Assembly (NCBI GenBank): GCA_035524095.1
Contig: DATKPK010000264.1
Span: forward strand, 10,546 to 74,545
Direction of reading: 5' to 3'
DNA: 64,000 bases
From: Candidatus Binataceae bacterium
GTDB lineage: Bacteria > Desulfobacterota > Binatia > Binatales > Binataceae
The notes under the pieces are model-generated. The model was not told the origin of the DNA and searched no databases. It worked only from the letters and a program-made list of their open reading frames with translations. Positions 3,797-23,564 of the stretch are shown in pieces. The position numbers and the translations under genes were made by a program. Numbering within the stretch: the first letter of the stretch is position 1; every line of letters begins with the position of its first letter.

Positions 3797-3811
3797 ATAG
3801 CTACAAGCCGC

Positions 3812-4999: not shown

Positions 5000-5036
5000 C
5001 GTCAGTTTTCAGGACAGCTGTCTGAGAGACGAGCTC

Positions 5037-6191: not shown

Positions 6192-6226
6192 AGTTTTCCA
6201 GTGAGAAAGAGAGATCGTACCGTGGC

Positions 6227-7690: not shown

Positions 7691-7781
7691 ATCAGAAAGT
7701 AAGGAGCGATATCGGAATTTGCTGATGGGTCTAAGGAAAGCTCAAGCAGTCGCTACCGGAACACCAGCTTGGCGGCTCCCA

Positions 7782-8978: not shown

Positions 8979-10387
8979 TGAGCACCTTCCGCACGGGTCA
9001 CTGCGCTGACGGTCTTGAGCATGATCTGGAGGTCGCCCCGCAAAGACTGATCGCGGATGTATTCCATGTCTAGCCTGACTCGATCGGCATAATCAGTGAT
9101 CAAGCTGCGGCCGTTGACTTGCCAATAGCCAGTCATTCCGGGTTTGACTGACAAGAGCAACTTAGCGTAGTCGTCGTACTGTTTGATCTCGTCAGGAACA
9201 ATTGGTCGAGGTCCCACGAGACTCATCTCCCCGCTAAGAACGTTGAATAATTGTGGCAATTCATCCAGGCTGAAGGTTCGCAGAAAACGACCTAGCGGGG
9301 TAATCCGGAAGTCATCTTCTGTTGCAAGTTTAAAGTTCCCTTCGCGATATCTGCTATACAGCTTAGTGTCCGCTTTAAGGACGGCTTCTGCGTCAGCACG
9401 CATGGTACGGAACTTAAATATGCGGAAATAGCTGGCGTCTTTACCGAGTCGCTGTTGGCGGAAGAAGACTGGTCCCGACGAAGTTAATTTTACTGCGATT
9501 CCGATCAGACACATCAGCGGAGCGAAGACTAGCAAGGCTATTGCGGCAAGGACAATATCAAAGAAGCGCTTGAGGATCGCTTGCCAAGGAGCCAAAGATC
9601 CAGGTCTTAGGGTGATTACCGGGATTCCTCCCACCTCGCTCACTGAGTAGCGAAACAAGGCACTATCCAGCAAAGCAGGAACTATATGCACCGCGTTGCA
9701 TTGCTTCAGCAAAGACACGATGGTGTCGCCGGTAGGAGTGCTATGGTTTTCGGACGGCATAACGAATACGTCGGTAGGAGGACTCAGTTGAGAATCACTC
9801 AACAGTGACATTTTTGTCGTTCGAGTATCTGTTCTAAGGGCGACTGACTCATAAGCATGCAGGCGCCTGAGTAGATTCAGTAGCCCCATACCAGTTGAGG
9901 GTTCACCCAAGATTATCGCGTTGCGGTAATGAGCCGGGCGGACGAACTGGCGTAACGCGTGATTCTCGAAAAGGCACTTGAGAATCATCGCGAGGGCCGC
10001 AGCCGTCAGAAATCCGAGTGTAAATTCACGACTAAGGCCTCGCAGTTTCAATATGAAGATTGCGACCGCGATAAACCCCAGCCACAAGGTGATTGCGCGT
10101 AGTAAGTGCCGCCATGAGCGTGCCAGCCACACGTCGTCGTCCCACTTGTAGACGCGCAGATAGCTGGTGGTTACTGCCCACAACAGAAGACTCGCGGAAA
10201 GTAAAATCGCGTATGATGAGGGCCAACCGATGATGTCGCCTCGATGGTGTTGTGGCCATATGAAAGCCCCAGACTGCTGCATCCTGGAGGCTGTCTTAGC
10301 TGCGAGCCCGAACGCTGCAACGATACAGCAATAGTCGAGTAGCCGCGAAAGAAAGCTGACGACGGGAGTGCGTGAGTCAAATTGCAT
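8975..10387 (-). CDS. Undecaprenyl-phosphate sugar phosphotransferase (WbaP/EpsB-type priming bacterial sugar transferase)
   Basis: 470 aa with N-terminal TM helices and the conserved C-terminal bacterial sugar transferase domain (FDIVLAAIALLVFAPLM..SSGPVFFRQQRLG..FRIFKFRTM..DELPQLFNVLSGEMSLVGPRP). Confidence 0.9.
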   Translation of the reverse strand: MQFDSRTPVVSFLSRLLDYCCIVAAFGLAAKTASRMQQSGAFIWPQHHRGDIIGWPSSYAILLSASLLLWAVTTSYLRVYKWDDDVWLARSWRHLLRAITLWLGFIAVAIFILKLRGLSREFTLGFLTAAALAMILKCLFENHALRQFVRPAHYRNAIILGEPSTGMGLLNLLRRLHAYESVALRTDTRTTKMSLLSDSQLSPPTDVFVMPSENHSTPTGDTIVSLLKQCNAVHIVPALLDSALFRYSVSEVGGIPVITLRPGSLAPWQAILKRFFDIVLAAIALLVFAPLMCLIGIAVKLTSSGPVFFRQQRLGKDASYFRIFKFRTMRADAEAVLKADTKLYSRYREGNFKLATEDDFRITPLGRFLRTFSLDELPQLFNVLSGEMSLVGPRPIVPDEIKQYDDYAKLLLSVKPGMTGYWQVNGRSLITDYADRVRLDMEYIRDQSLRGDLQIMLKTVSAVTRAEGAH

Positions 10388-10507
10388 CTTGGGTCTCGCC
10401 GCTTGCTAAATAATTGATCGAAACCGCCCCTAAACTCGGCATTAGAGGACGATTGTGCCGACAATTTGCTAAAAAATAGCGATCCGGATTGCTCAAAAAA
10501 GGCGAAC

Positions 10508-11620
10508 TTAGCAGTTCAAGAATCGCGCGCAGGCCTCGCGAACCATTCGATATGGAATGGCCTCCATGCATCGGCGGGGTTTGTGGCGATATTCGAAACC
10601 GAGATCCAGAAAGCCGCAACCCCGGCACGGTGACTCTATGGCGAGCGCTCGCGGACCAATTGGACCCCAGCGGCGTACCGAGGTCGGCCCGTGCAAGGCA
10701 ACGACAGGCGCACCAAGCGCGGCAGCGAGATGCATGATACCGGTATTGACTGAGACGACTAGACTTGCGTGCTCGAGCAATGAAGCAGTTGCATCGAGAG
10801 GTAAGCCGGCCGCGTTCTTAAAGCGTGAGCGAAGCGGCGACTTTATCATTGCGAGGAGGGTTTCGTTGGCACTGAATTGGCCAGGAGCTCCGGTCAAGAT
10901 GATCCGATCGCATTCCGTGATGAGCTCGCTTGCGAGTCGGGCCCAGCGTTCGAGCGGCCATTCCTTGAGTTCAGCCCGCATCCCGCCTGGCCACAAGTGG
11001 AAGACGATCAATTTTTCGGTTTGTCGCGGAGCAGATTCAGACCGACAGTTGACTAAAGGCAGGTGCCAGGCTTCGAGCCCAATTGCGCGCACAAGATTTC
11101 GATGATTGTCTAATTCGTGTACGTCACTACGATGTTCTACGCCAGCGTCGTAAGCGTAGTGGCGATGTTGTTTCGCCGTGCGAAAGCCGACCGTGAAATT
11201 GGCGCCGGCAAGTGCACACAGCACCGCGTTGATCCTCGGCCAGGGACCAAAATCCAAAAGTAGATCTAAACGGTATCTGCGTAACTGTTGGATGGACGCG
11301 GCGAGATTGCCTAGCGAAAGAGTGATTTTGCCGTCGAGACCTGTTAGTAGCCCGGTTGCCTCGGCATTTCCTTTGGCTGAGAAAGCGATCAGCTGAGCCT
11401 CTGGATAAGCTGATCGCAGATCAGCGATCGCAGCACCCATCAAGATCGTGTCACCAATCGCCGCGGTGTTGAGTACACCGATAGTCCGGACTGCTGAAGG
11501 CACTGATCGGCGACGCCGTCCGGCACCCAGGGCCAGCAAAAGCGGAATCCCCGCATACCGGTCCAGCGCATGCAGATGACGGTTGCCGCGTCCGGAAATA
11601 TTTCGGGTCAGCCCGCGCAA
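10508..11620 (-). CDS. Glycosyltransferase family 9 (heptosyltransferase-like), second copy
   Basis: GVLNTAAIGDTILMGAAIADL.. and ..VVSVNTGIMHLAAALGAPVVALHGPTS.. GT9 motifs. Confidence 0.8.
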   Translation of the reverse strand: MRGLTRNISGRGNRHLHALDRYAGIPLLLALGAGRRRRSVPSAVRTIGVLNTAAIGDTILMGAAIADLRSAYPEAQLIAFSAKGNAEATGLLTGLDGKITLSLGNLAASIQQLRRYRLDLLLDFGPWPRINAVLCALAGANFTVGFRTAKQHRHYAYDAGVEHRSDVHELDNHRNLVRAIGLEAWHLPLVNCRSESAPRQTEKLIVFHLWPGGMRAELKEWPLERWARLASELITECDRIILTGAPGQFSANETLLAMIKSPLRSRFKNAAGLPLDATASLLEHASLVVSVNTGIMHLAAALGAPVVALHGPTSVRRWGPIGPRALAIESPCRGCGFLDLGFEYRHKPRRCMEAIPYRMVREACARFLNC

Positions 11621-11669
11621 CGAGTCAACGCGAAAATCTAATTCTCAAAATGTTATCGAGTGTCCGCTG

Positions 11670-12707
11670 TTAGAGAGTGAGCGCCGCTGTTACAGAGCGG
11701 ATATCGTGCTTGTGCAAATAAAACTGGATTGGCGACCTAATTGCCCGGACTAACGAATGAAGCGAACGGTAGGCGCCTCGCAAGGTCTCACCCAACACTG
11801 AGTCAGCGGTCATCAGCGTTAATAGCAGAGGTGCCCTCGACAACGCGAAAGATTCCTTCAAGCAGGCGGCGGCAGCGAGCGCCTGGGTGTTCTGCGATGC
11901 AGCGGCGGCATCGATCGCATTTTTGAGAATCTTACGGCCTATCCAGGCGCGGGCACTTGCAAACGCTTCGCGTGCTTCGCTGTCTATCCACGGCGCGAAC
12001 TCGTATCGGTCGAGAATACGCAGCCAATGACTCGCATGGATGGCAGGGGAATACAGTTGTTTGCTGAGATGATCATGCCCGAGCGTCAAGATAGCGTAAG
12101 GCACAGGACAAACTATCATGCCGCAGTTCACGGCATAGCGGCAGATGAAGTCGAGGTCGATGCCGTGCTCAAAGCTAACATCGATGCTGCCAACGCGGCT
12201 AAGCGCGGACTGACGAAACAAAATCGCATTCCAATCAGGAAAATCGCGGCGGAGAATCTCCATGAAGCCCAGCGGCGCAGGGTAGAAGCGTTCAGGCCAG
12301 CGAACGACTGGTGTTGCGATGAAACTCTGGCCAAAGCGCACTGTTGCTCCCGCGAAAAGGCCTGCCGCTGGGTGCGATTCAAGAGCATGTGTCGCGGTTT
12401 CGAAAAACCCCGGCAAAAGTGCATCATCATCACTTAGAAGATTAAAATAAGGGGTGCTTACTCTGTCGATTCCGTATTTGAAGTTGTTCCAGGCTCCAAT
12501 GTTACTCGAATGGCAATAGTAGCCAACCCGAGAGTCTTCCCGAGCAAACTCCGCGACCACCGCGGAGGTGTCATCGCCTGAACCATTGTCGTAGACGCAA
12601 ATTTGAAAAGCGTCATAATTCTGCGCCAGAACCGAACGTATTGCTCGTTTTAGCAGGCGTGGGCGTCTGAAGGTTGGAATAATTGTGGTGATTTCGGGCG
12701 CCATCAC
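11670..12707 (-). CDS. Glycosyltransferase family 2
   Basis: N-terminal GT-A motif ITTIIPTFRRPRLLKRAIRSVLAQNY..ICVYDNGSGDDT. Confidence 0.85.
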   Translation of the reverse strand: MMAPEITTIIPTFRRPRLLKRAIRSVLAQNYDAFQICVYDNGSGDDTSAVVAEFAREDSRVGYYCHSSNIGAWNNFKYGIDRVSTPYFNLLSDDDALLPGFFETATHALESHPAAGLFAGATVRFGQSFIATPVVRWPERFYPAPLGFMEILRRDFPDWNAILFRQSALSRVGSIDVSFEHGIDLDFICRYAVNCGMIVCPVPYAILTLGHDHLSKQLYSPAIHASHWLRILDRYEFAPWIDSEAREAFASARAWIGRKILKNAIDAAAASQNTQALAAAACLKESFALSRAPLLLTLMTADSVLGETLRGAYRSLHSLVRAIRSPIQFYLHKHDIRSVTAALTL

Positions 12708-12735
12708 GATGTCAAGGCGATGCTGCCGGAGTTGG

Positions 12736-13461
12736 CTAGCTTACCGCACGACCATTAGCCGCAATCCTTGAATGAGAATTCGAGCCTTCCGAATGACATT
12801 GCTGGATGAAGCGCATCGCGTCGTGGAACATCCGCCAATTCTCCATTAGCCAATTCTCGTCGCGGTCCCACCACTTGAATTCCAGTAACTGCTCTACTGT
12901 CTCGGGTGGAAAGCGGTAACGTACTATTCGCGCCGGTACCCCAGCGACGATTGCATAGGGCGGTACATCCTTGGTCACAATCGCACCGGAGGCTATAATC
13001 GCCCCGTCGCCGACTGTGATCCCGTCGCGAATCGCCGCACGCAGCCCGATCCAGACATCGTTGCCAATCGCGGTATCAGCGTATTCTTCTCTACAATCGC
13101 GGTCGGCTAAGTTCCAGTGCTGGTCCGGCTTACGAAGATAAAAGATTGGATGGGTCGAAACAAAAGGCTCCAGCGGATGGCTCCCTAGGCCGATGTAAAC
13201 TTCAGAAGCGATCGAACAAAATTTGCCAATCGCAGCGGCGCTGACGTTGCAACTACGCCCGAGATAAGAATAGTCGCCTATCTGTGCCTTGCGCAGACAT
13301 ACACCAGGTCCGAGCATCACAGCTTTACCAAGTGTCGTATCGTCAGAGATAGAGCATCGCCGAGAAAGGGTACAATGAACACCACGAACGACATTGCGAT
13401 GGCGCAAAGATCGGATCAGAAGCCCAACGTATGCGCGCGTGTTGTTAAACAAAGATTCCAT
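12736..13461 (-). CDS. Hexapeptide-repeat (LbH) acetyltransferase, probable sugar O-acetyltransferase
   Basis: Left-handed beta-helix repeats (IGNDVWIGLRAAIRDGITVGDGAIIASGAIVTKDVPPYAIVAGVPARIV), XAT/CysE/LacA-like. Confidence 0.8.
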   Translation of the reverse strand: MESLFNNTRAYVGLLIRSLRHRNVVRGVHCTLSRRCSISDDTTLGKAVMLGPGVCLRKAQIGDYSYLGRSCNVSAAAIGKFCSIASEVYIGLGSHPLEPFVSTHPIFYLRKPDQHWNLADRDCREEYADTAIGNDVWIGLRAAIRDGITVGDGAIIASGAIVTKDVPPYAIVAGVPARIVRYRFPPETVEQLLEFKWWDRDENWLMENWRMFHDAMRFIQQCHSEGSNSHSRIAANGRAVS

Positions 13462-13504
13462 TAGTGGTAAACCAAAGACAGTAGCCGGATGAGCCGACTC
13501 TTGA

Positions 13505-15037
13505 TCACAACGAAAATGCGTGACGTGTGGAGGCCGCCAATTCTCGAATTTGCTTTCGTATCAAAGGGATCGACAGTGAGGCAGCGCCGAAAGCGAGCAC
13601 TCCATTCAAAAGAGCCAGCGATAGAATTCCCATTCGCGTGGTAACCGTGAAACTAAATCTAGCGACAAGGCAGCTCACGACGACGCAGGCGAACAGCGGA
13701 ATAGCTAAATCATGGAGATACCAGCGTAGGCATTCTCGGCTAAGAAAGCGACGATGCATCAGTTGGACCTGAGTCACTAGGTAACTCACGTTGATCAGAA
13801 GCCAAACGGCGGCGGCGCCTGAACTTCCAAAGCGCGCCGTCAATAGCAACAATAGGGGCACGGTAACGAAAGCCGATGCTAAATTCGTCCAGAAGGCGAT
13901 GGCTGTACAGCCATACGCGAGTTGCAAGGCGTACGGTATACTGACAATACAATTAAAGGCCGTGCCAGCCGTCAAAAGCGAAGCTGCCAGCCAAGTATGC
14001 GCTGCAGTTTGCTGGCTCCCGGTCCATGCGAAGACGAGCTGCCTGGCCAGAAAAATAAAAGTCGTCGCAGCAGGTAAAACTAGGATCGAAATAACTTGCG
14101 CAGCATGGTGATAAATCTCCGTCAGCCTGGGCGTGTCCTGGGCCGTGACGTGACGAGCGAAGGCAGGAAAGAGAGCGGTGAAGACCGGTGTGGAAACGAG
14201 ATAGAGACTCCCCGCGATTTGCCAAGCCAGACTGTAGTATCCGAACGCCTCCAATGAGAGTTGCTTGCTGATGACGATCTTATCTAGTTCCGTCAGTACC
14301 ATTGAGACTATGGTCACCGCAGTGACACCGCCGGCAAAGCGGCGGATGCTGCGGATAAGGCTGAGCCGAGGGATTGGCTTAGACCCCGCGGGCAAACAAT
14401 GCCACAGCAAAACTGCAAGAATGACAGTTTGTATGCTGTTGATTATTAGTTGCCAGGCGAAAAAAGCCCACGTCGTAGGGGACGCCAAAAGGATCACGAC
14501 AGCGGCGCCTAAGTTCCGGGTCGCGGTAAAAAATAGCGATATCCACGAGAGCAATACCTGGCGTTCGAGGCCACTGAGGCCTCCTCCGTAAAAGCTCATC
14601 GGCCATCGAGAGAAAATCAAAAAGCCAATCAAGACTACAACCGAGCGCAAACTGCTCTCCGCAACCGTATTACTGTGAAGCCAGCTCCTAGCAAGAACGG
14701 GTGCGGCTAGCACAATCACTCCGGCCAATATTGCTCCGATGCTCCAATAGCCGAGCTCTAATGTACGGACTAGATCGCGAATATGATCGGCGTTTCCGGC
14801 TTTGCGCGACGAAGCTGCCATTTCGCGAGTTATAGTTGAACTGAGACCAAAGTCTAGAAGATTGGCGAAGGTCTCCAGCAACGCCCAGACACCGATTAGA
14901 CCATAGCCGCTCACGCCGAGAACCCGCAGAAAGATCGGTACACAAGCAAGATTAACTAGGCCTGATAGAATTCTCGATATAAGGTTGGCGGAAAGATTCC
15001 GCCGGACTGAAGTAATTCCGAAAGTTGAAAACCGCAT
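13505..15037 (-). CDS. wzx: Oligosaccharide flippase (Wzx; MOP superfamily polysaccharide biosynthesis protein)
   Basis: 510 aa with about 12-14 TM helices. The N-terminus is typical of Wzx/RfbX flippases (LISRILSGLVNLACVPIFLRVLGVSGYGLIGVW..). Confidence 0.75.
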   Translation of the reverse strand: MRFSTFGITSVRRNLSANLISRILSGLVNLACVPIFLRVLGVSGYGLIGVWALLETFANLLDFGLSSTITREMAASSRKAGNADHIRDLVRTLELGYWSIGAILAGVIVLAAPVLARSWLHSNTVAESSLRSVVVLIGFLIFSRWPMSFYGGGLSGLERQVLLSWISLFFTATRNLGAAVVILLASPTTWAFFAWQLIINSIQTVILAVLLWHCLPAGSKPIPRLSLIRSIRRFAGGVTAVTIVSMVLTELDKIVISKQLSLEAFGYYSLAWQIAGSLYLVSTPVFTALFPAFARHVTAQDTPRLTEIYHHAAQVISILVLPAATTFIFLARQLVFAWTGSQQTAAHTWLAASLLTAGTAFNCIVSIPYALQLAYGCTAIAFWTNLASAFVTVPLLLLLTARFGSSGAAAVWLLINVSYLVTQVQLMHRRFLSRECLRWYLHDLAIPLFACVVVSCLVARFSFTVTTRMGILSLALLNGVLAFGAASLSIPLIRKQIRELAASTRHAFSL

Positions 15038-15116
15038 AGCGATCAGACCAGGGACGTGAGCATCAGTCGGCGACGCTTCGTGAAACGTGCGAACATGGTG
15101 GTTCTGGCCGGCGATA

Positions 15117-15911
15117 CTATTGCTTCAGCCAGAAGGCCCATGGCGCGCTGCCCGTCGCCCAAAGGTCGTTTAGTAGCTTCATTTCGCGATAGGTATCCAT
15201 GCACTGCCAAAAGCCTTGATGCTGATAGACAGCCAATTCGTTGCGCTCGGTCAGACGCATCAAAAGATCGGCCTCGAGATTATCGTCGTCTCCATCGATT
15301 AGTTCGAGCGCTCCAGGTTCGAAAATAAAGAAGCCGCCATTGATCCAACCGTCGGCAACCTGCGGCTTTTCGCGAAACAGTTTGACCAAGCCATTCTCGA
15401 TTGAGAGCTCGCCGAAACGCGACGATGGATGAACTCCGGTTACGGTTGCCAATTTATTTTGAAGGCTATGAAAGGCCAAAAGCTGGTCTAGATTAATATC
15501 AGCGACGCCGTCGCCGTACGTCACCATAAATGGTTGGTTATCGAGGTACTTCGCGATGCGCCGGATTCGCCCTCCAGTGTTAGTCAGTTCACCGGTTTCG
15601 GCCAAGGTCACGCGCCAACCGCATTCCTCATGTCTATTGAGTATCTCGAGGCGCCGCTGGCCTAGAGTCACGGTGAAATCGCTATTGTTCATTTCATAAT
15701 TAAAAAAGTAATCGCGGATCGTGTCTCCTTTGTAACCGAGGCAAACGACAAAATCGGTGTGACCATGAGCTGCGAAAATCTTCATTATGTGCCAGATTAT
15801 TGGCCGGCCACCGATGTCAACCATCGGTTTTGGTCGATAATCAGTCTCTTCTCGCAATCTGGTGCCCAGTCCTCCGGCCAGTATTACTACTTTCACCAGT
15901 ATTACTTCCAC
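15117..15911 (-). CDS. rfbF: Glucose-1-phosphate cytidylyltransferase
   Basis: GTG start. VVILAGGLGTRLREETDYRPKPMVDIGGRPIIWHIMKIF..GYKGD..FGELS.. gives a near full-length match to the RfbF/DdhA family. Confidence 0.9.
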   Translation of the reverse strand: MEVILVKVVILAGGLGTRLREETDYRPKPMVDIGGRPIIWHIMKIFAAHGHTDFVVCLGYKGDTIRDYFFNYEMNNSDFTVTLGQRRLEILNRHEECGWRVTLAETGELTNTGGRIRRIAKYLDNQPFMVTYGDGVADINLDQLLAFHSLQNKLATVTGVHPSSRFGELSIENGLVKLFREKPQVADGWINGGFFIFEPGALELIDGDDDNLEADLLMRLTERNELAVYQHQGFWQCMDTYREMKLLNDLWATGSAPWAFWLKQ

Positions 15912-15976
15912 CGCTTGTGATTGGATGTGACGCTTTTGCCTAAGAACGATAAGAACTTAGTTCGAATAAAAAGCTA

Positions 15977-18298
15977 TTACGAGTAGGTCTTTGGGTTTCG
16001 TTCAGTATAGTAGTTAGAATAACGATAGTAGCGTTTGTGGCTCCTATGCTGCGGACGGTTGAAGTCGACCCGATTGAAGACGAAACCGAGTACGCGCGCA
16101 CCGGCATGAATTAGGCGCCCATACGATTCAACGACAGCTTGGCGAGGAGTATCTTGCCCAATTACAAGAACGACGCCATCGACCATCGTGGATAGCGCGG
16201 TAGTGTCACTAGCACTCATTACTGGGGCCGAATCGACTAGGACGCAATCATGCTGGCGGCTCAGATCCTCTAGTAGAGCGCGCATGTGAGACGACACCAG
16301 CAATGCCGAAGGATTCGGTGTGGATGAACCGGCAGAAAGCAAGGAGAGATTGGTGACCGGAGAAATGACTCCTTCACCTAGCGTGATCTGACCCGCGAGC
16401 ACATCAGTAAGGCCGGCCGTCGAACGGATGGAAAAGAGCTGATGACATCGGGGACGGCGTAGGTCGGCGTCGACGAGAACCGTGCGTGCACCCATCTGTG
16501 CTGAAATCAATGCTGTGTTGGAAACGGTCAGAGTTTTGCCCTCTTGAGGGATCGAGCTGGTGAAGAGTATCGACCGAGGAGAGCCGCCAGCGCGAGAAAA
16601 AAGTAAAGCCACTCTGATCATCCGGTAGGGCTCAGTATAGTTAGCAGAATCAACCGTGTTTAAAGTGATCAATTCCTGAGGCCCGCTGTCATCTGGTTTT
16701 CGGCGCGAGTGCCTCTTGGATGGCCTCCCGGGTTTCAACCTTGAGTAGTCAGGCGCGACCGCAAGGCGAGGCAGATGCAGGACCCGGTCGATTTCTTCAA
16801 CGTCTTTGAAACGGTGGTCGCTGTTCTCAAGAAAAAAGGCGAACCCGATTCCAGTGAGGGATGCGATCAACCCAGTGATTGATATAGTCTTGAAGACCTT
16901 AGGATCAGATGGAGCGCGAGGCGCGATCGCGGGCGTAACGACAGTCTCATTAGATACGGGAGCCTGCTCAGCCACGCCCATCTCCTGCATGCGCTTAAGA
17001 ACGTCCTCGTATAGCTTGCGATTGGTTTCTGCCTCGCGCTCGAGCACAGCATCCTGGAGCGCCGCGTCATTTTGCTCTAGGTCGCGTTCCTTTTCCTCGT
17101 CAACGGCTTGGCGCAACGCGTGTTCACGGCTAAGAGATTCCTGATATTCGCGGTCGATGCCTTTCGTGACATTAGCGATTTCTCCGTTGAGCCGTGCTCG
17201 CGATTCGTTTAGCTGGGCTTTGAGTTTCGCCATATCCGGCCACTGATCAGTAAAGTGGCTAGCCATCGCCGCATATTGGGCTGCCAGCTCATCGGTTTGC
17301 GGCTTTAGGGCCTCAATCATTGGGTTGCTGATCACTGGAGGCAAGGAATCATAGTCACCGCCGTGAATGAGTTGCATTTCGGCTTCGAGCCTGATGCGGT
17401 TGGTTTCCGCGTCCGTCAACGCAGTGGAGAGCGCCGCCATGCGGGTTTCGGCGATCTGCTCTTTGTCGTCACTTGTGAAGTATATGATGCCTTTGGCGTG
17501 ACGATAGCTGTTCAGCGCGGCTTCAGAGGCTTCTACTTGTTGCTTGATCTCTACGAGTTGATTGCGGAGAAATAGCTGCGCACGTGCGCTAGCCTGATGA
17601 CGTAGGTCCAGGCCCCAGTCGATATAGCAGTGGGTGTGTGCGTTAGCGATTCGAGCGGCTAGCGTTGGGTCGGTAGTAGTAAACGAGACGGTTACCAATT
17701 GTGTCCCCAGGACCGGTGTAACGGAAAGCATCTTAAGGTAGTGCGTTATAGCGTCAGAACTGGCGCCGAGGTCGGCAGTATCCGGAAGAGAAGCTGCAAA
17801 GTTGGGGTGAAAGATGCTTAGTAATCGTCCTGGCCATTGACGAACAAGCTGCACAAGCTCAAAGTTTCCTTTTGGTCCAAGCAAAGGGATGCGATCAAGA
17901 GCCAGACTGCGGATGACTTTAGCTGCGAGTGCTGGACTCTGCAGCAGATTCTCTTGGGTCTTGTAAAAATCGTGCTCATCGCTGTTTGGCGTCGTCGCGA
18001 CCAACTGTGTGACGTCGAGTATCTGTGGAATTGAGGGTTGAATCAGTAACGTCGCTGTCGCCGTATAGCGCGGCGTCTGCACTAGAATAACTATTAGGGC
18101 TACGATCAAAGCGCCGGCGACAGTACCGAGCAATAGTACGAGCCGCTTGCGGAGGGTCAGCCAGCATTCCCAAAGACCCAGGCCATGCTGCTCGTTGAAT
18201 TCCTGTCGATAAAGTTCTGCGTGTGGCCGGTCTTGCGAAGACGGGGGAATGATCGGAGCGACTGGCAAACCATCTGGCTCGGACATTGGGAGGTTCAC
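15977..18298 (-). CDS. wzc: Polysaccharide co-polymerase/tyrosine autokinase (Wzc-type BY-kinase, PCP-2a)
   Basis: 773 aa. N-terminal TM and Wzz-like periplasmic domain with coiled coil. C-terminal P-loop (IPQEGKT), Walker A' (VLVDADLRRP), Walker B (DCVLVDSAPV) and a Tyr-rich tail (KRYYRYSNYYTE..TYS). Confidence 0.9.
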   Translation of the reverse strand: MNLPMSEPDGLPVAPIIPPSSQDRPHAELYRQEFNEQHGLGLWECWLTLRKRLVLLLGTVAGALIVALIVILVQTPRYTATATLLIQPSIPQILDVTQLVATTPNSDEHDFYKTQENLLQSPALAAKVIRSLALDRIPLLGPKGNFELVQLVRQWPGRLLSIFHPNFAASLPDTADLGASSDAITHYLKMLSVTPVLGTQLVTVSFTTTDPTLAARIANAHTHCYIDWGLDLRHQASARAQLFLRNQLVEIKQQVEASEAALNSYRHAKGIIYFTSDDKEQIAETRMAALSTALTDAETNRIRLEAEMQLIHGGDYDSLPPVISNPMIEALKPQTDELAAQYAAMASHFTDQWPDMAKLKAQLNESRARLNGEIANVTKGIDREYQESLSREHALRQAVDEEKERDLEQNDAALQDAVLEREAETNRKLYEDVLKRMQEMGVAEQAPVSNETVVTPAIAPRAPSDPKVFKTISITGLIASLTGIGFAFFLENSDHRFKDVEEIDRVLHLPRLAVAPDYSRLKPGRPSKRHSRRKPDDSGPQELITLNTVDSANYTEPYRMIRVALLFSRAGGSPRSILFTSSIPQEGKTLTVSNTALISAQMGARTVLVDADLRRPRCHQLFSIRSTAGLTDVLAGQITLGEGVISPVTNLSLLSAGSSTPNPSALLVSSHMRALLEDLSRQHDCVLVDSAPVMSASDTTALSTMVDGVVLVIGQDTPRQAVVESYGRLIHAGARVLGFVFNRVDFNRPQHRSHKRYYRYSNYYTERNPKTYS

Positions 18299-18334
18299 TT
18301 GTTGTAGAAGCAGACGCCGTGGAGTGGCTCGCCC

Positions 18335-19498
18335 TTATGGGATCGGTATCGCGAGCCCCGGCGAAAAGCGGCCCAGGATGGAGTAGACTGCATAAGGAAC
18401 CGCGCCGACAACCGAGCGATCGACTATTACAACATCGCCAGCTTCAAGCGGTATGTCGGGCGACGCTCCTGACCGGATCGCTGATAGATTAACTGACAGC
18501 TTGGCTCTTTGGTTTCCCGAGCCTGAACGGAGAATCCTGGCGTTCGAGCTGAAAAGTGCCCCTCCTGCAGCCGCGATCGCACCTAATACGGTCATTCCGG
18601 GGGTGAGATTTACTGCGCCTGGGGTGTTGACCCATCCTTCAACCGTAACGTTCCCAGCGACGGGCACGATTACGGTATCCCCAGGCCGCGCAGGCAGCTC
18701 GAGGCAGCGGCGCTCGTTATCATCATGCATGTTCATAACGATCGGCGAGGGTACCCCATCGGTATGCGACGCCGGCGCAAGTAATTCACCATCAGATGAA
18801 TCACTGTGAATGGGCGTGTCGCCCTTTACACTGCGCCCGGAGGTCTCGGGAGACGCCTTAATGGAATAGGTACTCGAAGCGGAGAGACCGCCTATACGCA
18901 GGCCGGGCCGCCATGCCGACCCTGGAATGAACAAGACACGCTGAGACGCATCATCGCGTAGGCCTCCCGCTTCCGCAATCGTGTCCATAATCGTTTCGTT
19001 CTGGCTCGAAAGAACAATCAAACCGGGTTTATTCACCAGGCCCATTACGCGGACGGTGCGGCTCTTATCTTCTTCGTTGAAAACGCTCACTTCGGGATTA
19101 CGAATGTACTTGCTGAGCCGCCGTTCGAGTTCGCGCTCAAGATCATCGTCGGTCATATGCGTCACGGAAACAGTTCCGGCAAAAGGAAAGGCAATCGTGC
19201 TATCGCCGCTCACGCGCACCTCAAGTTTCTCCAACTGATCGACACCCACGACGGTGATGCGGAGCAAGTCACCTGGACCAATCGGGTAGTCGGTTTGACT
19301 GATCTGAGAGCTGCGGCTGTTCCAGAGTTGTCGAAATTCGGACGAAGTCCGGCAGTCTGATATGGAGCTCGCTACATCGGCAGCCGGTGGCAGATAGGAT
19401 GACTCATCTCTCAATGCAGATTGGCCGTTGGCAGTACGGCAAATCAACGACTCAACAGCAGCGAATAGTAGAAACAAAGGCAGAATAAGCCTAGCCAT
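18335..19498 (-). CDS. wza: Polysaccharide export protein (Wza/OPX family)
   Basis: Signal peptide (MARLILPLFLLFAAVESL). PES motif region (IGPGDLLRITVVG..) and SLBB repeats typical of OPX exporters. First gene of the operon. Confidence 0.85.
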   Translation of the reverse strand: MARLILPLFLLFAAVESLICRTANGQSALRDESSYLPPAADVASSISDCRTSSEFRQLWNSRSSQISQTDYPIGPGDLLRITVVGVDQLEKLEVRVSGDSTIAFPFAGTVSVTHMTDDDLERELERRLSKYIRNPEVSVFNEEDKSRTVRVMGLVNKPGLIVLSSQNETIMDTIAEAGGLRDDASQRVLFIPGSAWRPGLRIGGLSASSTYSIKASPETSGRSVKGDTPIHSDSSDGELLAPASHTDGVPSPIVMNMHDDNERRCLELPARPGDTVIVPVAGNVTVEGWVNTPGAVNLTPGMTVLGAIAAAGGALFSSNARILRSGSGNQRAKLSVNLSAIRSGASPDIPLEAGDVVIVDRSVVGAVPYAVYSILGRFSPGLAIPIP

Positions 19499-20761
19499 CG
19501 GAGTAAGTAGTCTTGAGAGGATAGTGGTAGTACGCTGCCAGATTCGATTCAGTTGTTATCGTTGACTATCGATCCACGCGTCCGCCATCCCAGAGCTGTT
19601 GGGTAATCGAGCGGTGGTCCGATTCCGGCGCTTCAGGAGCTGCGAAAGACGACTACGCGCGGAATCATCGAGCGAGATTCATATTTACTCAACATGGCCG
19701 ATCTTCAACAAGATAGAGCCACGCTACTTCGTGTAGGATAGGTCCGGCAAAGGGTGAAGAACGCGAAGCGTGCAGCAGGTTCAACTGCTATTTTGCAACT
19801 CGATCGGGAATAGCGACCTTAAGCTGAGCCTTCAATACGATGTTAAGTTGTTGTCAATACTGTGCTTTGAGGTGAGTTACAATTTAACCTTGCCTGGAGA
19901 CACACCGTCATGGAGATCGTCGTGACTCGAACGATTCGGAGAGGTTGCATGCGATCTAGATGACGGAATCGTACGGATGCGATCCGAACTGGACGAAATG
20001 ATCGGCCCTTAATGATTGATTAGTCGAGCAAAGGAGTCTTGAATGCAAGATTAATCCGATTTGGCATGTCTGAGGTCGGTTTAGAGGAGACTAGCTTGTG
20101 CGCGGAATGACTCCTCCGCAAACTATCGCGTGTCGATCATCAGCCGAGGCTTGGTTCATCGAACTTTCATCATAAAAACCACCGGAAATTTGCCACTAGC
20201 ATCTGGCCAATAAACGTCAGTACTCCGTATAGTGGCGTCGTGACTATGTCTCTCAACGCGATCCCAGTCCGTGACCTTTCAAGTTGCGTTGCTGCGGATC
20301 GGCCACGCTCATCTGAATCTGCTCAGCGACTATGTCTCGAAGCGACACATAGTCGTCCGACGAGTCGTCTCACCTGACTATCGCTCTCCTTGAACAGCGC
20401 TAAGGGCTTCTCGAGCCCTCGGCCGTCTTTGTTTCGGCTATCTTCGCCGCGAAGGTTCGTAGGACCTCGCAGCAGAATTCCATCGAGACAGCGAAAGCCG
20501 ATTCTACAGTCTTTGGAAGGTTGCATGATTCACGACAAACCGAGGCAGGCAGTGAGTCAATTAGGTACAGACTCTGTGCTTTAGCCAGATGAGTCAAAGA
20601 CGGCTGATGAGTTGATCCCTTCTAGGAGGAGACGCTCAAAACGGCGACAACGACCAGCGCGAATCTGGTATCGGGTTTGCTCACGATCTTTCTCTTCGTG
20701 ACAGACGCTCGCGTCAGTCATTAGTCAATGAGCGATCGGTCAACGAGCGTTTCGCTGAGGA
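19499..20761. promoter_or_regulatory. 1.26 kb lower-GC non-coding divergent-promoter/leader region between wza and the regulator gene, with a repeated motif array
   Basis: The six-frame track shows no ORF above 67 aa here. TGACTATCG/TGACTATGTCTCTC-type copies sit at about 19563, 20241, 20327 and 20375. An inverted copy at about 20344-20355 forms a 9-10 bp hairpin with the 20327 copy. A GACGAGTCGTC palindrome lies at about 20359-20369. Confidence 0.6.
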
Positions 20762-21961
20762 GTGAAGGTACAAAGTAGTATGGAGCCTTTCGCGCGTATC
20801 GCACTTGGTAGAGGAGCTCCCGCCGAACTCGCACACCGCTTGGCGGCGATCGGTCTCGAATCGGTGCCGGAACGCAACTGGCATCTGGCCGACTTCGCGG
20901 TTGAGTTCGATGGCGAGGTGGGGCAGCGCAACACTGGAGTACCGATAGCCCGGATCGCGATGCGCGCCATCCCTAACGATGCGCTGCCCGCTGATTTCGC
21001 TTCGCCGAGCGTTCATGCTGTGGCTTGCTTCATTCTTTCCCGGGCGCTTTGCCTATCTGCGCCTTTTCTCACTGCTGAGGCGAGCGTGTTCGAAGTCGTT
21101 CGCTCAGTGCTAACACTGACGCGCGGACCGGCGCGCTTGGTGATTGAAGGTGAGACTGGGGTGGGTAAGCAAGCGCTAATTCGTATTGTCTTGGCCGCGG
21201 CAGGCACCGGCCAAATTGTGCGCGTCGATTGTGCTTCGTTTGACGAGGCTTCCGCCGACAAAGAATTTTCAGCGGCGATTAAAGTCCTCGCGGGCACTGG
21301 TTCCGATGTCATATCAGGGGAAGCCGCCCACGGCGGGATTCTCTTCCTCAATCGGGTCGACGAATTACCACTTTCGGCTCAGCGGCGATTACTCAACGGG
21401 ATCCATTCCGCGCCGGTGATACGCCCGCGTATCCGTTACCTTGCAACCTCAACGCAACCGCTTGGCGATCTAATGGCGCGCGGGTTGTTCGTTCCTGAAC
21501 TGCACAATCTCTTCGAGGTCGCAGTTGCGCTTTCGCCATTGCGCGAGCGTCCTGCAGACGTGGCGATGTTGGCTTCGTATTTTCTGCGCAATACCAATCC
21601 TGCGCTGGCATTGAGTGGCGGAGCTCTCAAAACTCTGACCGACTATCCTTTTCCGGGTAATGTCCGTGAGCTGCAAAATCTGATTACCAGACTCGCGATT
21701 GTGCCGCTGGCTTCCGAGAACACGGTCATTGGACGTCCGGACATCCTGGGTCAGTTAGTAGCCTCCAGTACTGGACGCCTGCGTTCGGTGCCGCAGATGG
21801 GGCGTACGGCGCCCCGCGCGCGGCCACGATCTAACGTAGTCGGACCGCCCGCCGCTGCTGGTCCAGCCGGAACGCGTAACAAAGAGAATTCTCCGTTGCG
21901 GCTGACCCCGTCTACTGTTCGGCGTCCGCCTAAGCCGCCCAACGATCCTCGTCTCAGCTGA
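20762..21961 (+). CDS. Atypical sigma54-interaction-domain (NtrC-family AAA+) regulator-like protein; GAFTGA loop degenerate, no receiver domain, no HTH
   Basis: Walker A (EGETGVGKQALIR), Walker B (GGILFLNRVDELPL), arginine finger region and sensor II (FPGNVRELQNLI) are present. The ESELFGHEKGAFTGA region is replaced by ..SADKEFSAAIKVLAGTGSDVISGEAA... The C-terminal 80 aa are Pro/Arg-rich and disordered-looking. The start may instead be the ATG at 20780 (MEPFARI..), which has a GGAG-like RBS. Confidence 0.7.
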   Translation: MKVQSSMEPFARIALGRGAPAELAHRLAAIGLESVPERNWHLADFAVEFDGEVGQRNTGVPIARIAMRAIPNDALPADFASPSVHAVACFILSRALCLSAPFLTAEASVFEVVRSVLTLTRGPARLVIEGETGVGKQALIRIVLAAAGTGQIVRVDCASFDEASADKEFSAAIKVLAGTGSDVISGEAAHGGILFLNRVDELPLSAQRRLLNGIHSAPVIRPRIRYLATSTQPLGDLMARGLFVPELHNLFEVAVALSPLRERPADVAMLASYFLRNTNPALALSGGALKTLTDYPFPGNVRELQNLITRLAIVPLASENTVIGRPDILGQLVASSTGRLRSVPQMGRTAPRARPRSNVVGPPAAAGPAGTRNKENSPLRLTPSTVRRPPKPPNDPRLS

Positions 21962-22142
21962 AACACGAATCATTGTTCAGACCTTCAGTCAAGCTTATAA
22001 TTTGCGAAAGTATTACGATTTAGTTTATAAATCTTGAATTCCTCAACCTCGAGCGCTCTGATTAAGGAATGACGCAGGCTGCCCTTGGCGGCACCAAACG
22101 CGTTCAACCCCGCCGGAGGCCGTCTCTATAGAACAAACCGAG

Positions 22143-22370
22143 GTGCAAACAACGGATAGGAAGCGGCGAGCAACTCGTTCGACCCACTGGCTATTCAACT
22201 TAGGCATCGCTATCGCGATGGCCGGACTGGCAGGGTGTGCAGCGGCTCCAGCAACGCCCCCATCGCAACGAATTGCACTGGTCACGCCTCAAAACACTCA
22301 AACTCCCAACACCGAAAGCTGGGCGAGGCTTCACAACAGTACCAGTTATTCGTGGACAAACTGGTTCTGA
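22143..22370 (+). CDS. Candidate small lipoprotein (75 aa)
   Basis: GTG start. n-region with KRR, hydrophobic h-region and lipobox LAGC (MQTTDRKRRATRSTHWLFNLGIAIAMAGLAG-C). Lies in a 470-bp convergent intergenic gap. No homology was recognised. Confidence 0.3.
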   Translation: MQTTDRKRRATRSTHWLFNLGIAIAMAGLAGCAAAPATPPSQRIALVTPQNTQTPNTESWARLHNSTSYSWTNWF

Positions 22371-22433
22371 AGATAAAGCTGGCAGCCGCGATCATCGCAG
22401 CCGCCCGCCAGCTGAACAGGCATAGGCTCGGCG

Positions 22434-23564
22434 CTAATTCAGCGCGTAATAGCGCTTGGCTCCCCCGGCCAGTACGTTAGCCTCAATCGCAGGCGGCATC
22501 CCCATTGCCTTGATCATTTTGGGCGCGTCGGGAAAGCCATCCAAATGCGGATAGTCGGTCGCCCAAAGGATGTTGTCTGAACCGATGTAGTCGGCGAGCA
22601 ACGGCAAAGAGCCCTCGACCGGCTCGAATGAGATAAAGCATTGGCGCCGGAATATCTCAGACGGCCGGGTGTTAAGCCGGGTATCATTCATGCCTTGATC
22701 GTCGAAATGACGATCCATCCGGTCGAGCCATCCCGCCATCCAGCCGCCGCCGGACTCCAGCAATGCGATTCTGAGGTTCGGAAAGCGATCGCAGACGCCG
22801 CACATGATTAGGCTGGTCGCCGCAGCCATCATCTCGAATGTATGCGCTACGCAATGCCGTACCGCACCGCCGCGAGTGAAACGATCCATCCCCAGCGTCG
22901 GCTGGCCGCTTTCAGAACCGCCGTGAATCCCTATCCCGAACCCTAGCGCCTGAGCCTGTTCCCATAACGGGTCGTTGGCGGGGTCATGCAACGCCCGCCC
23001 GTTATAAGGATTCGGGCGAATGAAACCGGCACGGAAGCCCAGTTCGTTGACTGCGAAATCCATTTCCTCGATGGCGTACTCCACGCTTTGCATCGGCAGC
23101 ATCGCCGCGCCGAACAGCCGCTCTGGATACGAATGACAATAGTCTGCGAGCCAGCGATTGTAGGCACGGCAGGCGGCTGCGGCAAATACTGGCTCTTTGA
23201 TCGAACCCAGGAACAGCCCCAGGCTTGGATAGAGGAAGGCCGCATCGACGCCCTCGGCATCCATGTCCGGGATGCGCGCGTGCGGATCGAAGCCGCCTTT
23301 CCGGCCTTCGCTATAAGGCATCTTCGGAGAGGTTTTGCCGTCGCGTGATCCATAGGCGCCGACAGCGCCGAAGCTGACGCGTTTCTTACCACGACTCAAG
23401 TCAACCGCGTCGTCGTACTCGACGCGAAAGATTTCAGCGCCATTCTCGAGTACGATCAGCTTGGGGCATCCTTCGCGGAACTTGGGCTCCATGTAGCGTT
23501 CCCACAAATCGGGTGGCTCGAGGATGTGCCCATCCGCGTCGATGACGTTGTAGGTTTGGGCCAT
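22434..23564 (-). CDS. Amidohydrolase-2 family metal-dependent hydrolase (ACMSD-like)
   Basis: MAQTYNVIDADGHILEP.. N-terminus (His-x-His metal site) and ..WATDYPHLDG.. C-terminal motif. Start moved to the internal ATG at 23564, which has a GAGGTG RBS. The track ORF extends to 23627. Confidence 0.8.
   Translation of the reverse strand: MAQTYNVIDADGHILEPPDLWERYMEPKFREGCPKLIVLENGAEIFRVEYDDAVDLSRGKKRVSFGAVGAYGSRDGKTSPKMPYSEGRKGGFDPHARIPDMDAEGVDAAFLYPSLGLFLGSIKEPVFAAAACRAYNRWLADYCHSYPERLFGAAMLPMQSVEYAIEEMDFAVNELGFRAGFIRPNPYNGRALHDPANDPLWEQAQALGFGIGIHGGSESGQPTLGMDRFTRGGAVRHCVAHTFEMMAAATSLIMCGVCDRFPNLRIALLESGGGWMAGWLDRMDRHFDDQGMNDTRLNTRPSEIFRRQCFISFEPVEGSLPLLADYIGSDNILWATDYPHLDGFPDAPKMIKAMGMPPAIEANVLAGGAKRYYALN

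Follow-up and report, generated by a model that had tools for sequence, protein, structure and literature searches.

The window (the whole 64-kb stretch of DNA that was analysed, from an uncultured Binataceae bacterium) contains an open reading frame on the plus strand (20762..21961) that codes for a degenerate protein of the enhancer-binding protein (EBP) clade and lies divergently to wza, the first gene of an EPS operon. The preliminary description placed the start of the gene at GTG 20762, which gives the longest open reading frame, but all database orthologues open with MEPFARI and in the alignment ATG 20780 and the codons after it do not change across the orthologue loci, so that ATG 20780 is the likelier start. 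The features referred to below are as follows.

18335..19498, minus strand: wza (Poly_export plus SLBB), first gene of the divergent EPS operon (2621-19498); context, and a candidate target at most
19575-19586, minus strand: ops-like element GGCGGACGCGTG in the wza leader
20180..20220, no strand assigned: block A, CACCGGAAATTTGCCACTAGCATCTGGCCAATAAACGTCAG, a non-coding element of ~40 nt at the left edge of the conserved regulator module
20327..20355, no strand assigned: block B, conserved palindrome CGACTATGTCTCG aag CGACACATAGTCG (inverted repeat I4)
20525..20569, no strand assigned: block C, −141 to −97 from the TGG, containing GATTYRCGAC; candidate enhancer/operator
20666..20681, plus strand: predicted sigma-54-type −24/−12 element TGGTATCGGGTTTGCT, 99 nt upstream of the ATG
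20780..21961, plus strand: coding sequence of the degenerate EBP-like protein, 393 aa plus stop
20780..21064, plus strand: family-specific N-terminal alpha/beta domain (aa 1-95), beta-alpha-beta-alpha-beta-beta...alpha
21065..21769, plus strand: EBP-clade AAA+ core plus lid (aa 96-330), Walker A and sensor-II kept
21149-21169, plus strand: Walker A (G124-K130), intact, GETGVGKQ
21350-21355, plus strand: Walker-B position (N191-R192), degenerate
Residues V238 and L244: the arginine-finger positions, both Arg gone
21665-21667, plus strand: sensor-II R296, in the intact motif FPGNVRELQN
21770..21958, plus strand: disordered Pro/Arg-rich tail (aa 331-393), pLDDT below 50, ending in conserved SPLRLTPSTVRRPPKPPNDPRLS

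The Pfam profile Sigma54_activat matches the protein with 41.5 bits (cut-off 20.2), which places it in the EBP clade of AAA+ proteins although only profile positions 5-120 of 168 are covered, and AAA_lid_14 is also found. Its closest solved relatives are NtrC1 (E 5e-18), ZraR, FleQ, PspF and VpsR, and VpsR is among the top structural matches returned by Foldseek. As in the canonical EBPs NtrC1, PspF, ZraR and NorR, Walker A, the PLRER motif, the sensor-II GNVREL and the lid domain are present. Unlike these proteins, however, it carries VLAGTGS (aligned segment KVLAGTGS) in place of GAFTGA in L1, GGILFLNR where they have GGTLFLDE at Walker B (Asp to Asn and the catalytic Glu to Arg), FVPELHNLF in the window clade for the arginine-finger segment FRxDLYYRL, and an L2 (pre-sensor-I) segment of 23 residues against 31 in four canonical EBPs, with an eight-residue gap against NtrC1. 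Four EBP-defining features (GAFTGA, the Walker-B Glu, the arginine fingers and a full-length L2) are absent at the level of sequence, which predicts that the protein does not activate sigma-54 promoters by ATP hydrolysis. The preliminary description was right that this is a degenerate EBP-family AAA+ protein with sensor-II FPGNVRELQN retained and GAFTGA missing, and the decay goes further than was stated there; its claim that both Walker motifs are kept holds for Walker A but not for Walker B. The same losses extend through the family. When 29 members were aligned to canonical EBPs, neither the Walker-B Glu nor GAFTGA was found in any of them, and 47 further representatives have no GAFTGA either; the Walker-B site reads LFLNR in the window clade and NH, SR, DQ or DR in relatives, and the second arginine-finger Arg is retained only in the P0024/P0034-37 subclade.

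The regions on either side of the core bear out what was first described. The N-terminal residues (about 95) match nothing in Pfam, NCBIfam or the PDB sequence families, in agreement with the earlier view that no signalling domain is recognisable there, and the absence of a receiver likewise stands, as Response_reg is not found by Pfam. A receiver was also considered by sequence using hhalign against receiver domains and was rejected (probability 0.5%); the domain has no conserved acidic pocket and no conserved Asp or Lys. It is nevertheless predicted to fold (in blocks of ten residues the AF2 pLDDT is mostly 83-96, falling to 65-69 in two loop blocks), and in Foldseek comparisons REC-AAA+ proteins co-align over the full length (~380-400 columns), this alpha/beta domain included. 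At the other end, HTH_8 is absent from the window protein even at E up to 1 and the C-terminal 63 residues form a Pro/Arg-rich tail that is predicted to be disordered, so the description of such a tail in place of a Fis-type HTH was correct. HTH_8 is found in P0019 (25.1 bits) and P0024 (22.6 bits), falls below the cut-off in P0034, P0021, P0029 and P0036, and is not found at E up to 1 in P0009, the window clade being without it. As these distant members retain a Fis-type HTH, and their '...GISPRALLRLTTAAVPRSRRPRGG' aligns with the window-clade tail, the alignment shows the tail to be what remains of the final HTH helix after HTH loss, together with a basic extension. The (L/H)RL(T/V)-basic motif at the C-terminus is kept family-wide and is under constraint. 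The relatives with an HTH probably bind DNA, so some affinity for DNA might persist in the window-clade basic tail.

Every orthologue is a full-length open reading frame, and comparison of the orthologues gave dN/dS values of 0.08-0.22 for the whole gene and 0.03-0.15 for the AAA+ core; in the C-terminal part the values were 0.05-0.56 for the last 28 aa against 0.22-0.98 for the linker, and purifying selection is seen across all three parts of the protein. From the whole-gene values we conclude that the gene is functional.

The exact pattern TGGYAYN5TTGCW occurs once in the 64 kb of the window, about 100 nt upstream of the gene. Its −24/−12 core is invariant in all orthologue loci while the flanks have diverged, and all 16 family loci that were examined in full have one exact match each, on the gene strand and just upstream of the family gene (the element is likewise found upstream of the family genes in L109-L111 and L011), whereas the background rate, taken from 1.43 Mb of other loci, is 0.013 per kb. 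The element is missing upstream of the two genuine EBP genes (L014 and L077) that served as controls. Because the element is perfect and phylogenetically invariant, transcription of the gene is predicted to be sigma-54-dependent. Only the exact pattern is informative: a scan relaxed to 2 mismatches found 23 sites where 30.8 would be expected, and no intergenic one on the wza strand. A predicted −24/−12 promoter of the kind raised in the preliminary description is present in the window, but it would drive the regulator gene itself and none faces wza. A scan of 19400-22100 for sigma-70 promoters and terminators returned hits at chance level, none of which could be assigned as a promoter to wza or block A, and the predicted 5′ UTR (20693-20800) is no more stably folded than shuffled sequence (z = −1.0).

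Further upstream are the three conserved blocks. Block C is conserved in the alignment, and its 10-mer GATTTGCGAC or the reverse complement lies at about −60 to −140 in L001, L004, L105, L007 and L010. The ATGT...ACAT arms of block B are retained in the orthologues, with L001 altered on both arms. Of the six window-clade loci scanned, five match block A with 0-3 mismatches and L004 with seven; the distant loci L007, L010 and L106 have 2-6, and block A is further diverged in L110 and L111. The module from block A through to the promoter accompanies the regulator gene and not wza, and the wza leader has a conserved ops-like element of its own. No Rfam family matched 19300-22500 at E up to 1, and the hexamer GCGACA/TGTCGC is weakly enriched upstream. 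The region had been called a repeat-rich leader, which is not borne out: in its 1.5 kb there are just two direct repeats of two copies each (12 and 17 nt), besides five inverted pairs of 13-17 nt.

Comparison of the neighbourhoods bears on the proposal that this protein is the prime candidate regulator of the EPS locus. The divergent neighbour is wza in four of the seven informative close orthologue loci (the window, L001, L110 and L111), one of them with a protein of just 59% identity; a role connected with EPS is therefore possible. The expectation that orthologues are always divergent from wza-wzc nevertheless fails, as wza is not the divergent neighbour in L105 (83% identical protein; Hydantoinase_B and NUDIX upstream), in L005/L006 (Kelch and PqiA/MlaD neighbours) or in L004, and EPS genes are missing beside the orthologues with 83% and 64% identity. 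An RND efflux operon (MFP plus ACR_tran) lies opposite the family gene in all five loci of distant members on long contigs, whose proteins share 30-44% identity with the window clade; in three of these loci Y_phosphatase3 is present as well. Since the pumps are 73-83% identical to each other, the five represent one orthologous arrangement and are not independent. With linkage to wza partial, relatives that face an RND operon and no −24/−12 element towards wza, the proposal does not hold in the form in which it was made; a divergent position seen in one genome is an unsafe guide to which operon a regulator controls.

Transcription by sigma-54 depends on EBPs as its obligatory motors. The gene described here is a functional pseudo-EBP gene, whose product keeps the EBP-clade fold, the P-loop and the sensor-II Arg and has lost the catalytic, sigma-54-contact and HTH parts. 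Our preferred reading, held tentatively and with a probability somewhat short of even, is that of a sigma-54-induced, nucleotide-binding but non-hydrolysing pseudo-EBP that acts via protein partners and is not a dedicated, self-sufficient EPS regulator. Because the gene has its own conserved, predicted sigma-54 promoter, a non-catalytic modulator of a sigma-54 circuit is likelier than a dedicated polysaccharide switch. If transcription is sigma-54-dependent, a genuine EBP encoded elsewhere would have to switch the gene on. The product would bind nucleotide without hydrolysis (the change of the Walker-B Asp to Asn could weaken Mg-ATP binding) and on its own would neither remodel the sigma-54 holoenzyme nor bind an enhancer, so that it would have to work through protein–protein contacts, as an output or feedback element of the circuit. 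Most probably the product would assemble together with a genuine EBP by way of the conserved AAA+ interfaces and, having neither arginine fingers nor the sigma-54 loop, would damp or re-tune the resulting ring; alternatively, some other partner may be contacted by the N-terminal domain or the C-terminal motif. The earlier suggestion that the protein must act through a partner was a reasonable inference, because the gene is under purifying selection and has lost the HTH and the loop.

As to known systems, the protein is best read as a variant of the atypical EBP class, the members of which (VpsR, TyrR, PhhR, HupR, HsfA and NtrX among them) have an AAA+ core in which GAFTGA is lost or altered (PMC6158489). 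The window protein has such a core; the DNA-binding domain that also belongs to this sigma-54-independent class, whose members work at sigma-70 promoters, is lacking, as the window clade is without an HTH. It resembles VpsR of Vibrio cholerae in having an EBP-clade AAA+ domain without GAFTGA, a Walker-B Asp changed to Asn, a lost catalytic Glu and an association with polysaccharide genes. Unlike VpsR, which has a receiver, a C-terminal HTH and its own DNA binding, it has neither receiver nor HTH by sequence, both arginine fingers are also gone and its own gene lies behind a predicted sigma-54 promoter. To our knowledge TyrR, PhhR, HupR, HsfA and NtrX all keep a DNA-binding domain and a recognisable sensory domain, and we know of none among them that combines loss of GAFTGA, the Walker-B DE, the arginine fingers and the HTH. 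A second comparison is with FleT of Rhodobacter (Cereibacter) sphaeroides, which is without an N-terminal domain or HTH, is made from a sigma-54 promoter activated by FleQ and hetero-oligomerises with FleQ (PMC10084136, PMC7277832). Like FleT, the window protein is an EBP paralogue without an HTH whose gene lies behind a sigma-54 promoter (here predicted from sequence and conservation); unlike it, the window protein has an N-terminal domain, and whereas FleT is a working sigma-54 co-activator, co-activation of that kind is unlikely here as GAFTGA and the catalytic residues are gone. In a mixed ring it would be only passive or inhibitory, the loop and catalytic residues needed for activation having been lost, and inactive RedR subunits do inhibit their active partner in mixed oligomers (PMC10084136, PMC7277832). 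HrpR/HrpS and RedR1/RedR2 are the precedent for paralogous EBPs in mixed rings (PMC10084136), although unlike the window protein these keep the full catalytic and sigma-54-contact equipment and the HTH.

Other explanations were weighed against the preferred reading of a partner-dependent pseudo-EBP. Direct control of the divergent wza-wzc genes at a sigma-70 promoter by a VpsR-like atypical EBP, perhaps responsive to c-di-GMP, would account for the position of wza in the window, L001, L110 and L111, even at 59% protein identity, and for the place of VpsR among the structural matches; VpsR itself, with no GAFTGA, a Walker-B Asp-Glu changed to Asn-Asp and no ATPase, activates polysaccharide genes with sigma-70 (PMC6158489). 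We nevertheless think such control distinctly unlikely: VpsR has the HTH that the window clade lacks, the EPS neighbour is missing beside the 83% and 64% identical orthologues and replaced by an RND operon beside distant members, the module from block A to the promoter moves with the regulator gene, and the wza leader has its own conserved ops-like element. The RND neighbourhoods lead instead to a trans-acting factor of an RND efflux/envelope regulon, the second tier of a sigma-54 cascade, contacting DNA by the remnant recognition helix and the basic tail. The five-of-five divergence from MFP plus ACR_tran (three with Y_phosphatase3), the retention of HTH_8 in several of these RND-facing members and the constrained C-terminal motif are in its favour, but the 64-kb window has no RND operon, the five loci amount to one arrangement, and ~25 residues of disordered tail make a weak basis for sequence-specific binding, so that we regard this as unlikely, though conceivable.

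The remaining alternatives give the protein either a purely receptive role or none. As a stand-alone receptor for a nucleotide or second messenger (ATP, c-di-GMP or another), it would signal to a non-EBP partner via the N-terminal domain, which is conserved and confidently folded in the AF2 model; the P-loop and sensor-II arginine are kept despite lost catalysis, and the AAA+ domains of FleQ and VpsR bind c-di-GMP (titles of PDB 5exx and 7v2b). No conserved neighbour gene points to such a partner, however, and we consider a receptor of this type highly unlikely. The number of catalytic and interaction motifs that have gone, and the fast divergence of the family (its proteins are 35-40% identical beside RND pumps that are 73-83% identical), could be taken as signs of a decaying, functionless EBP relic, but full-length reading frames in all orthologues, the dN/dS values for gene and core, the invariant promoter and the conserved upstream blocks make decay barely credible, and it is already disfavoured.

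The preferred pseudo-EBP reading has a more specific form, which we regard as doubtful, in which the protein would join or cap the ring of its activating EBP as a dead, sigma-54-blind subunit and so be a dominant-negative feedback brake, with block A as the shared enhancer. We know of no description so far of a dominant-negative pseudo-EBP brake as a mode of sigma-54 control; if true, it would be a natural example of a pseudo-ATPase subunit in the EBP AAA+ clade, and modulation of a genuine EBP would add a protein-level feedback layer to enhancer-dependent transcription. Known atypical EBPs have lost the sigma-54 loop and kept DNA binding, and those relatives already known to have no DNA-binding domain still work as motors. 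The present family has lost both the motor with its sigma-54 contact and DNA binding, yet it is under selection and, to judge from its predicted promoters, lies downstream of sigma-54 at each locus examined. A search of the literature on sigma-54 in Binatota returned nothing.

Exhaustive searching with the N-terminal profile gave 57 clusters at 50% identity among 1.84 billion representatives, and the named members are Binataceae, so the family is apparently rare and Binatia-specific. A word-indexed search with the same region gave nine short proteins (70-182 aa) that are probably fragments. In metagenome contigs L091 was the sole close locus in a single-protein scan, and in genome contigs the family-alignment scan, which was keyed on Y[PR]FPGN[VI][RL]E, a pattern common to generic EBPs, had one true family locus (L011) among the matches listed. 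In L011 the stretch immediately 5′ of the family gene holds a truncated REC-AAA+ gene and the 3′ end of a histidine-kinase gene, both abutting a peptidase S15 gene that is truncated as well; a rearrangement or an assembly junction seems to lie here, and the arrangement was given no weight as a sign of a linked activator. No GAFTGA-bearing gene is present within the window or any family locus. Automatic annotation names these proteins 'sigma-54-dependent/interacting transcriptional regulator' or 'DNA-binding NtrC family response regulator', and both labels are misleading for the window clade.

The preliminary description placed an open reading frame at 20762-21961 (+), and this is present, but its start is more likely the ATG at 20780: MEPFARI is the N-terminus of all database orthologues, and at the orthologous loci the DNA is invariant from this ATG on while the 18 nt preceding it vary. 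The gene is therefore taken as 20780-21961 (393 aa). In Pfam the window protein matched AAA_lid_14 and, over positions 5-120 of a 168-position profile, part of Sigma54_activat (41.5 bits), with no match to HTH_8, bearing out the reported lack of an HTH, and none to a receiver; NCBIfam returned only sub-threshold matches (PrpR, NorR, AtoC, NtrC and others) confined to the AAA+ region, in keeping with an N-terminus in which no signalling domain had been recognized. Among proteins of solved structure the nearest in sequence are NtrC1 (E 5e-18), ZraR, FleQ, PspF and VpsR, and the close homologues with a named source are from Candidatus Binataceae MAGs (phylum Binatota). The database copy P0001, given as 100% identical across 98% of the query, has GNFRELQN in place of the window's GNVRELQN (21656-21673), so that the window is a close variant of the P0001 contig and not an identical copy.

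The window protein was aligned with 28 family members and four canonical sigma-54 enhancer-binding proteins (EBPs), from which the motifs were tabulated.

Motifs of canonical EBPs and of the window protein
Walker A: canonical GESGTGKE; window GETGVGKQ (intact)
GAFTGA loop: canonical GAFTGA; window KVLAGTGS (absent)
Walker B: canonical GGTLFLDE; window GGILFLNR (Asp to Asn, Glu to Arg)
Pre-sensor-I segment: canonical 31 residues; window 23 residues
Arginine fingers: canonical FRxDLYYRL; window FVPELHNLF (both lost)
Sensor II: canonical GNVREL; window GNVREL (kept)
PPLRER motif: canonical PPLRER; window SPLRER (kept)

The absence of GAFTGA noted earlier is thus borne out, but Walker B, which had been described as kept, has both acidic residues replaced. 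The PspF Asn that pairs with the Walker-B Glu (the 'glutamate switch') aligns with window Asp150 (VDCAS). As read from the alignment, the catalytic machinery has been taken apart at a number of independent sites and the nucleotide-binding elements survive. In an alignment-based AF2 model (pLDDT 77.8, pTM 0.75) an N-terminal alpha/beta domain, for the most part predicted with confidence (residues 1-90; beta-alpha-beta-alpha-beta-beta...alpha), is followed by a standard AAA+ core with lid and then by a disordered tail (residues 331-393). Foldseek gave full-length alignments of about 380-400 columns to the REC-AAA+ proteins NtrC1 (4l4u), VpsR (7v2b) and LuxO (5ep0), a hint that the modelled N-terminal domain may be receiver-like in topology; profile-profile comparison with receiver domains gave a probability of 0.5%, the domain has no conserved Asp or Lys, and its profile matched no PDB sequence.

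The family is rare: an HMM of the N-terminal domain, searched exhaustively, recovered 57 cluster representatives among 1.84 billion. GAFTGA is found in none of the 47 newly found representatives and the Walker-B Glu in none of 29 aligned members, so that the loss of catalytic and sigma-54-contact elements is family-wide and a solid observation; one subclade retains the second arginine finger and has 'DQ' in Walker B. The Fis-type HTH is kept in distant members (30-44% identity), HTH_8 reaching the Pfam cut-off in P0019 and P0024 and falling slightly under it in P0034, P0021, P0029 and P0036. Because the alignment pairs the window tail '...NSPLRLTPSTVRRPPKPP' with '...GISPRALLRLTTAAVPRSRRPRGG', we read the tail as what is left of the recognition helix, its last turn, followed by a basic extension that is kept across the family whether or not the HTH survives. 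Pairwise dN/dS was calculated for six orthologues.

Pairwise dN/dS by protein part
Whole gene: 0.08-0.22
AAA+ core: 0.03-0.15
N-terminal domain: 0.15-0.36
Last 28 residues: 0.05-0.56
Linker 331-365: 0.22-0.98

The linker looks to be under relaxed constraint. The window gene is not a pseudogene, as selection acts on all parts of the protein.

A search for a -24/-12 promoter, proposed in the preliminary description, did find one exact site, but unexpectedly it lies 5' of the pseudo-EBP gene itself:

20666-20681 (+), TGGTATCGGGTTTGCT, exact sigma-54 consensus TGGYAY-N5-TTGCW, 99 nt 5' of the ATG

No other exact match occurs in the 64-kb window, and the TGG...TTGC core of this one is invariant in seven aligned orthologous upstream regions whose surroundings diverge (mean column identity 63%). 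Each family-gene locus examined has an exact match on the gene strand about 75-140 nt 5' of the start (exceptions: L007, about 230 nt; L011, about 45 nt), including loci of members only 30-40% identical, L109-L111 and L011, and none of the 16 loci that were scanned throughout has a second exact match, against a background of 0.013 per kb (1.43 Mb, other loci). The N5 spacers differ by locus (CGGGT, CGACT, CGCCC, CTGCC, TCGTA, CCGCC, CCCCC), in line with a -24/-12 element, and the site is missing 5' of two genuine EBP genes taken as controls (L014, L077). Because of this conserved upstream match, expression of the degenerate EBP gene is predicted to be enhancer-dependent too. Its product cannot activate it, and as no GAFTGA-bearing gene occurs in the window or in any family locus the activator would be encoded elsewhere. 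The sole place with part of a genuine EBP gene near a family gene is L011 8039-9274, on a 987-kb MAG contig, where a histidine-kinase 3' end and a REC-AAA+ gene broken off soon after Walker A lie against a truncated peptidase S15 gene directly 5' of the predicted sigma-54 promoter; either a rearrangement produced this junction or the assembly did.

The EPS cluster (Wza/Wzc type) is a minus-strand operon at 2621-19498 comprising wza, a 773-aa Wzz-GNVR-ATPase protein, nucleotidyltransferase, flippase, acyltransferase, GT2, two GT9, Bac_transf, two GT4 and a pectate-lyase-like protein. A 487-aa ORF within it (6227-7690, -) has no Pfam match and may be a Wzy-type polymerase from its position among glycosyltransferases and flippase. 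Neighbours were compared for close orthologues (59-86% identity).

Upstream neighbours of close orthologues (identity to the window protein)
Window: wza, divergent
L001 (74%): wza, divergent
L110 (78%): wza, divergent
L111 (59%): wza, divergent
L105 (83%): Hydantoinase_B and NUDIX
L005/L006 (64%): Kelch propeller, DUF4396, PqiA/MlaD
L004 (66%): unrelated gene

The downstream side is syntenic in all of them (Amidohydro_2, SDR, PKD, SDR, carbonic anhydrase). All five distant members on long contigs are divergent from an RND pair (MFP and ACR_tran), three also having Y_phosphatase3:

L007 4541-8934
L008 3254-7584, peptidase S15 gene between family gene and RND pair
L010 4902-9247
L106 5089-9382
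L107 1554-6037, peptidase S15 gene likewise between

Between these loci the pumps are 73-83% identical and the regulators 35-40%, which argues for one old arrangement with a fast-evolving regulator and not five independent associations; the window has no RND operon. The linkage to polysaccharide loci expected of a prime candidate EPS regulator is thus frequent in the immediate clade, but it is not universal there and is absent from the wider family, and the case for such a role is weakened.

From the loss of the catalytic and sigma-54-contact elements and of the HTH we infer that the protein would hold nucleotide without hydrolysing it, would neither engage sigma-54 nor find DNA by an HTH, and would have to act through protein contacts; it would be made only when some genuine EBP fires the predicted promoter. 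A subunit that lacks the arginine fingers and the GAFTGA loop would either stay passive in a mixed ring or inhibit it, and by analogy the protein may be such a subunit giving feedback on its activator, a reading to which we give somewhat less than an even chance. The closest working precedent is FleT, HTH-less and driven from a sigma-54 promoter: FleQ transcribes its gene and the two form hetero-oligomers, while in RedR1/RedR2 an inactive subunit inhibits its active partner inside mixed oligomers (PMC10084136, PMC7277832). An EBP without a DNA-binding domain is already known in FleT, and 'atypical EBPs' without GAFTGA are an established class (TyrR, PhhR, HupR, HsfA, NtrX, VpsR; PMC6158489), but in the literature we found no family that has lost the sigma-54 loop, Walker-B pair, arginine fingers and, in this clade, the HTH, yet is selected and has a sigma-54 promoter, and nothing on Binatota together with sigma-54.

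The remnant helix and basic tail could instead serve a trans-acting factor for an RND or envelope regulon, which seems unlikely. A VpsR-like EPS regulator is a still more doubtful proposition: VpsR also lacks GAFTGA, has the Walker-B Asp to Asn change and shows no ATPase activity, yet it carries both a REC domain and an HTH (PMC6158489). The surviving nucleotide-binding elements might make the protein a stand-alone nucleotide or c-di-GMP receptor, which we regard as improbable, and that a gene under such selection is a functionless relic is scarcely credible.

Besides the sigma-54 element, three non-coding blocks 5' of the gene are conserved:

20525-20569, block C, 45 nt, contains GATTYRCGAC
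20327-20355, block B, palindrome with 13-bp arms
20180-20220, block A, about 40 nt, non-coding, CACCGGAAATTTGCCACTAGCATCTGGCCAATAAACGTCAG

None has an Rfam match or a recognizable promoter reading. In some distant loci the block C 10-mer is found again at comparable positions 5' of the family gene, in one orientation or the other. Block A, the left edge of the stretch conserved with the gene, is kept near letter-for-letter even in L007, L010 and L106, where the family proteins are only 35-40% identical, and lies at -297 to -523 relative to the sigma-54 element; it may be an enhancer.

No EPS-operon promoter could be assigned in the wza leader. On the wza-sense strand, 19586 to 19575, GGCGGACGCGTG is identical at 10/12 positions to the E. 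coli ops element GGCGGTAGCGTG (PMC5995543); GGCGGNNGCGTG has a single match in the window (0.35 expected by chance). GGCGGACGCGTG is conserved in 4/4 wza-linked loci and adjoins a small hairpin (19589-19592 / 19600-19603) with compensatory changes in L111. Both mismatches are at sites whose substitution reduces or abolishes E. coli RfaH recruitment, so the likeness is only a lead, and the element may recruit a NusG paralogue (RfaH/UpxY-like) to the EPS operon. Such an antitermination signal would explain the 1.1-1.5-kb wza leaders without the pseudo-EBP. The wza-proximal leader (19600-19900) also holds short blocks conserved in the four EPS-linked loci, e.g. GCTATTTTGCAACTCGA and GAGTTACAATTT.
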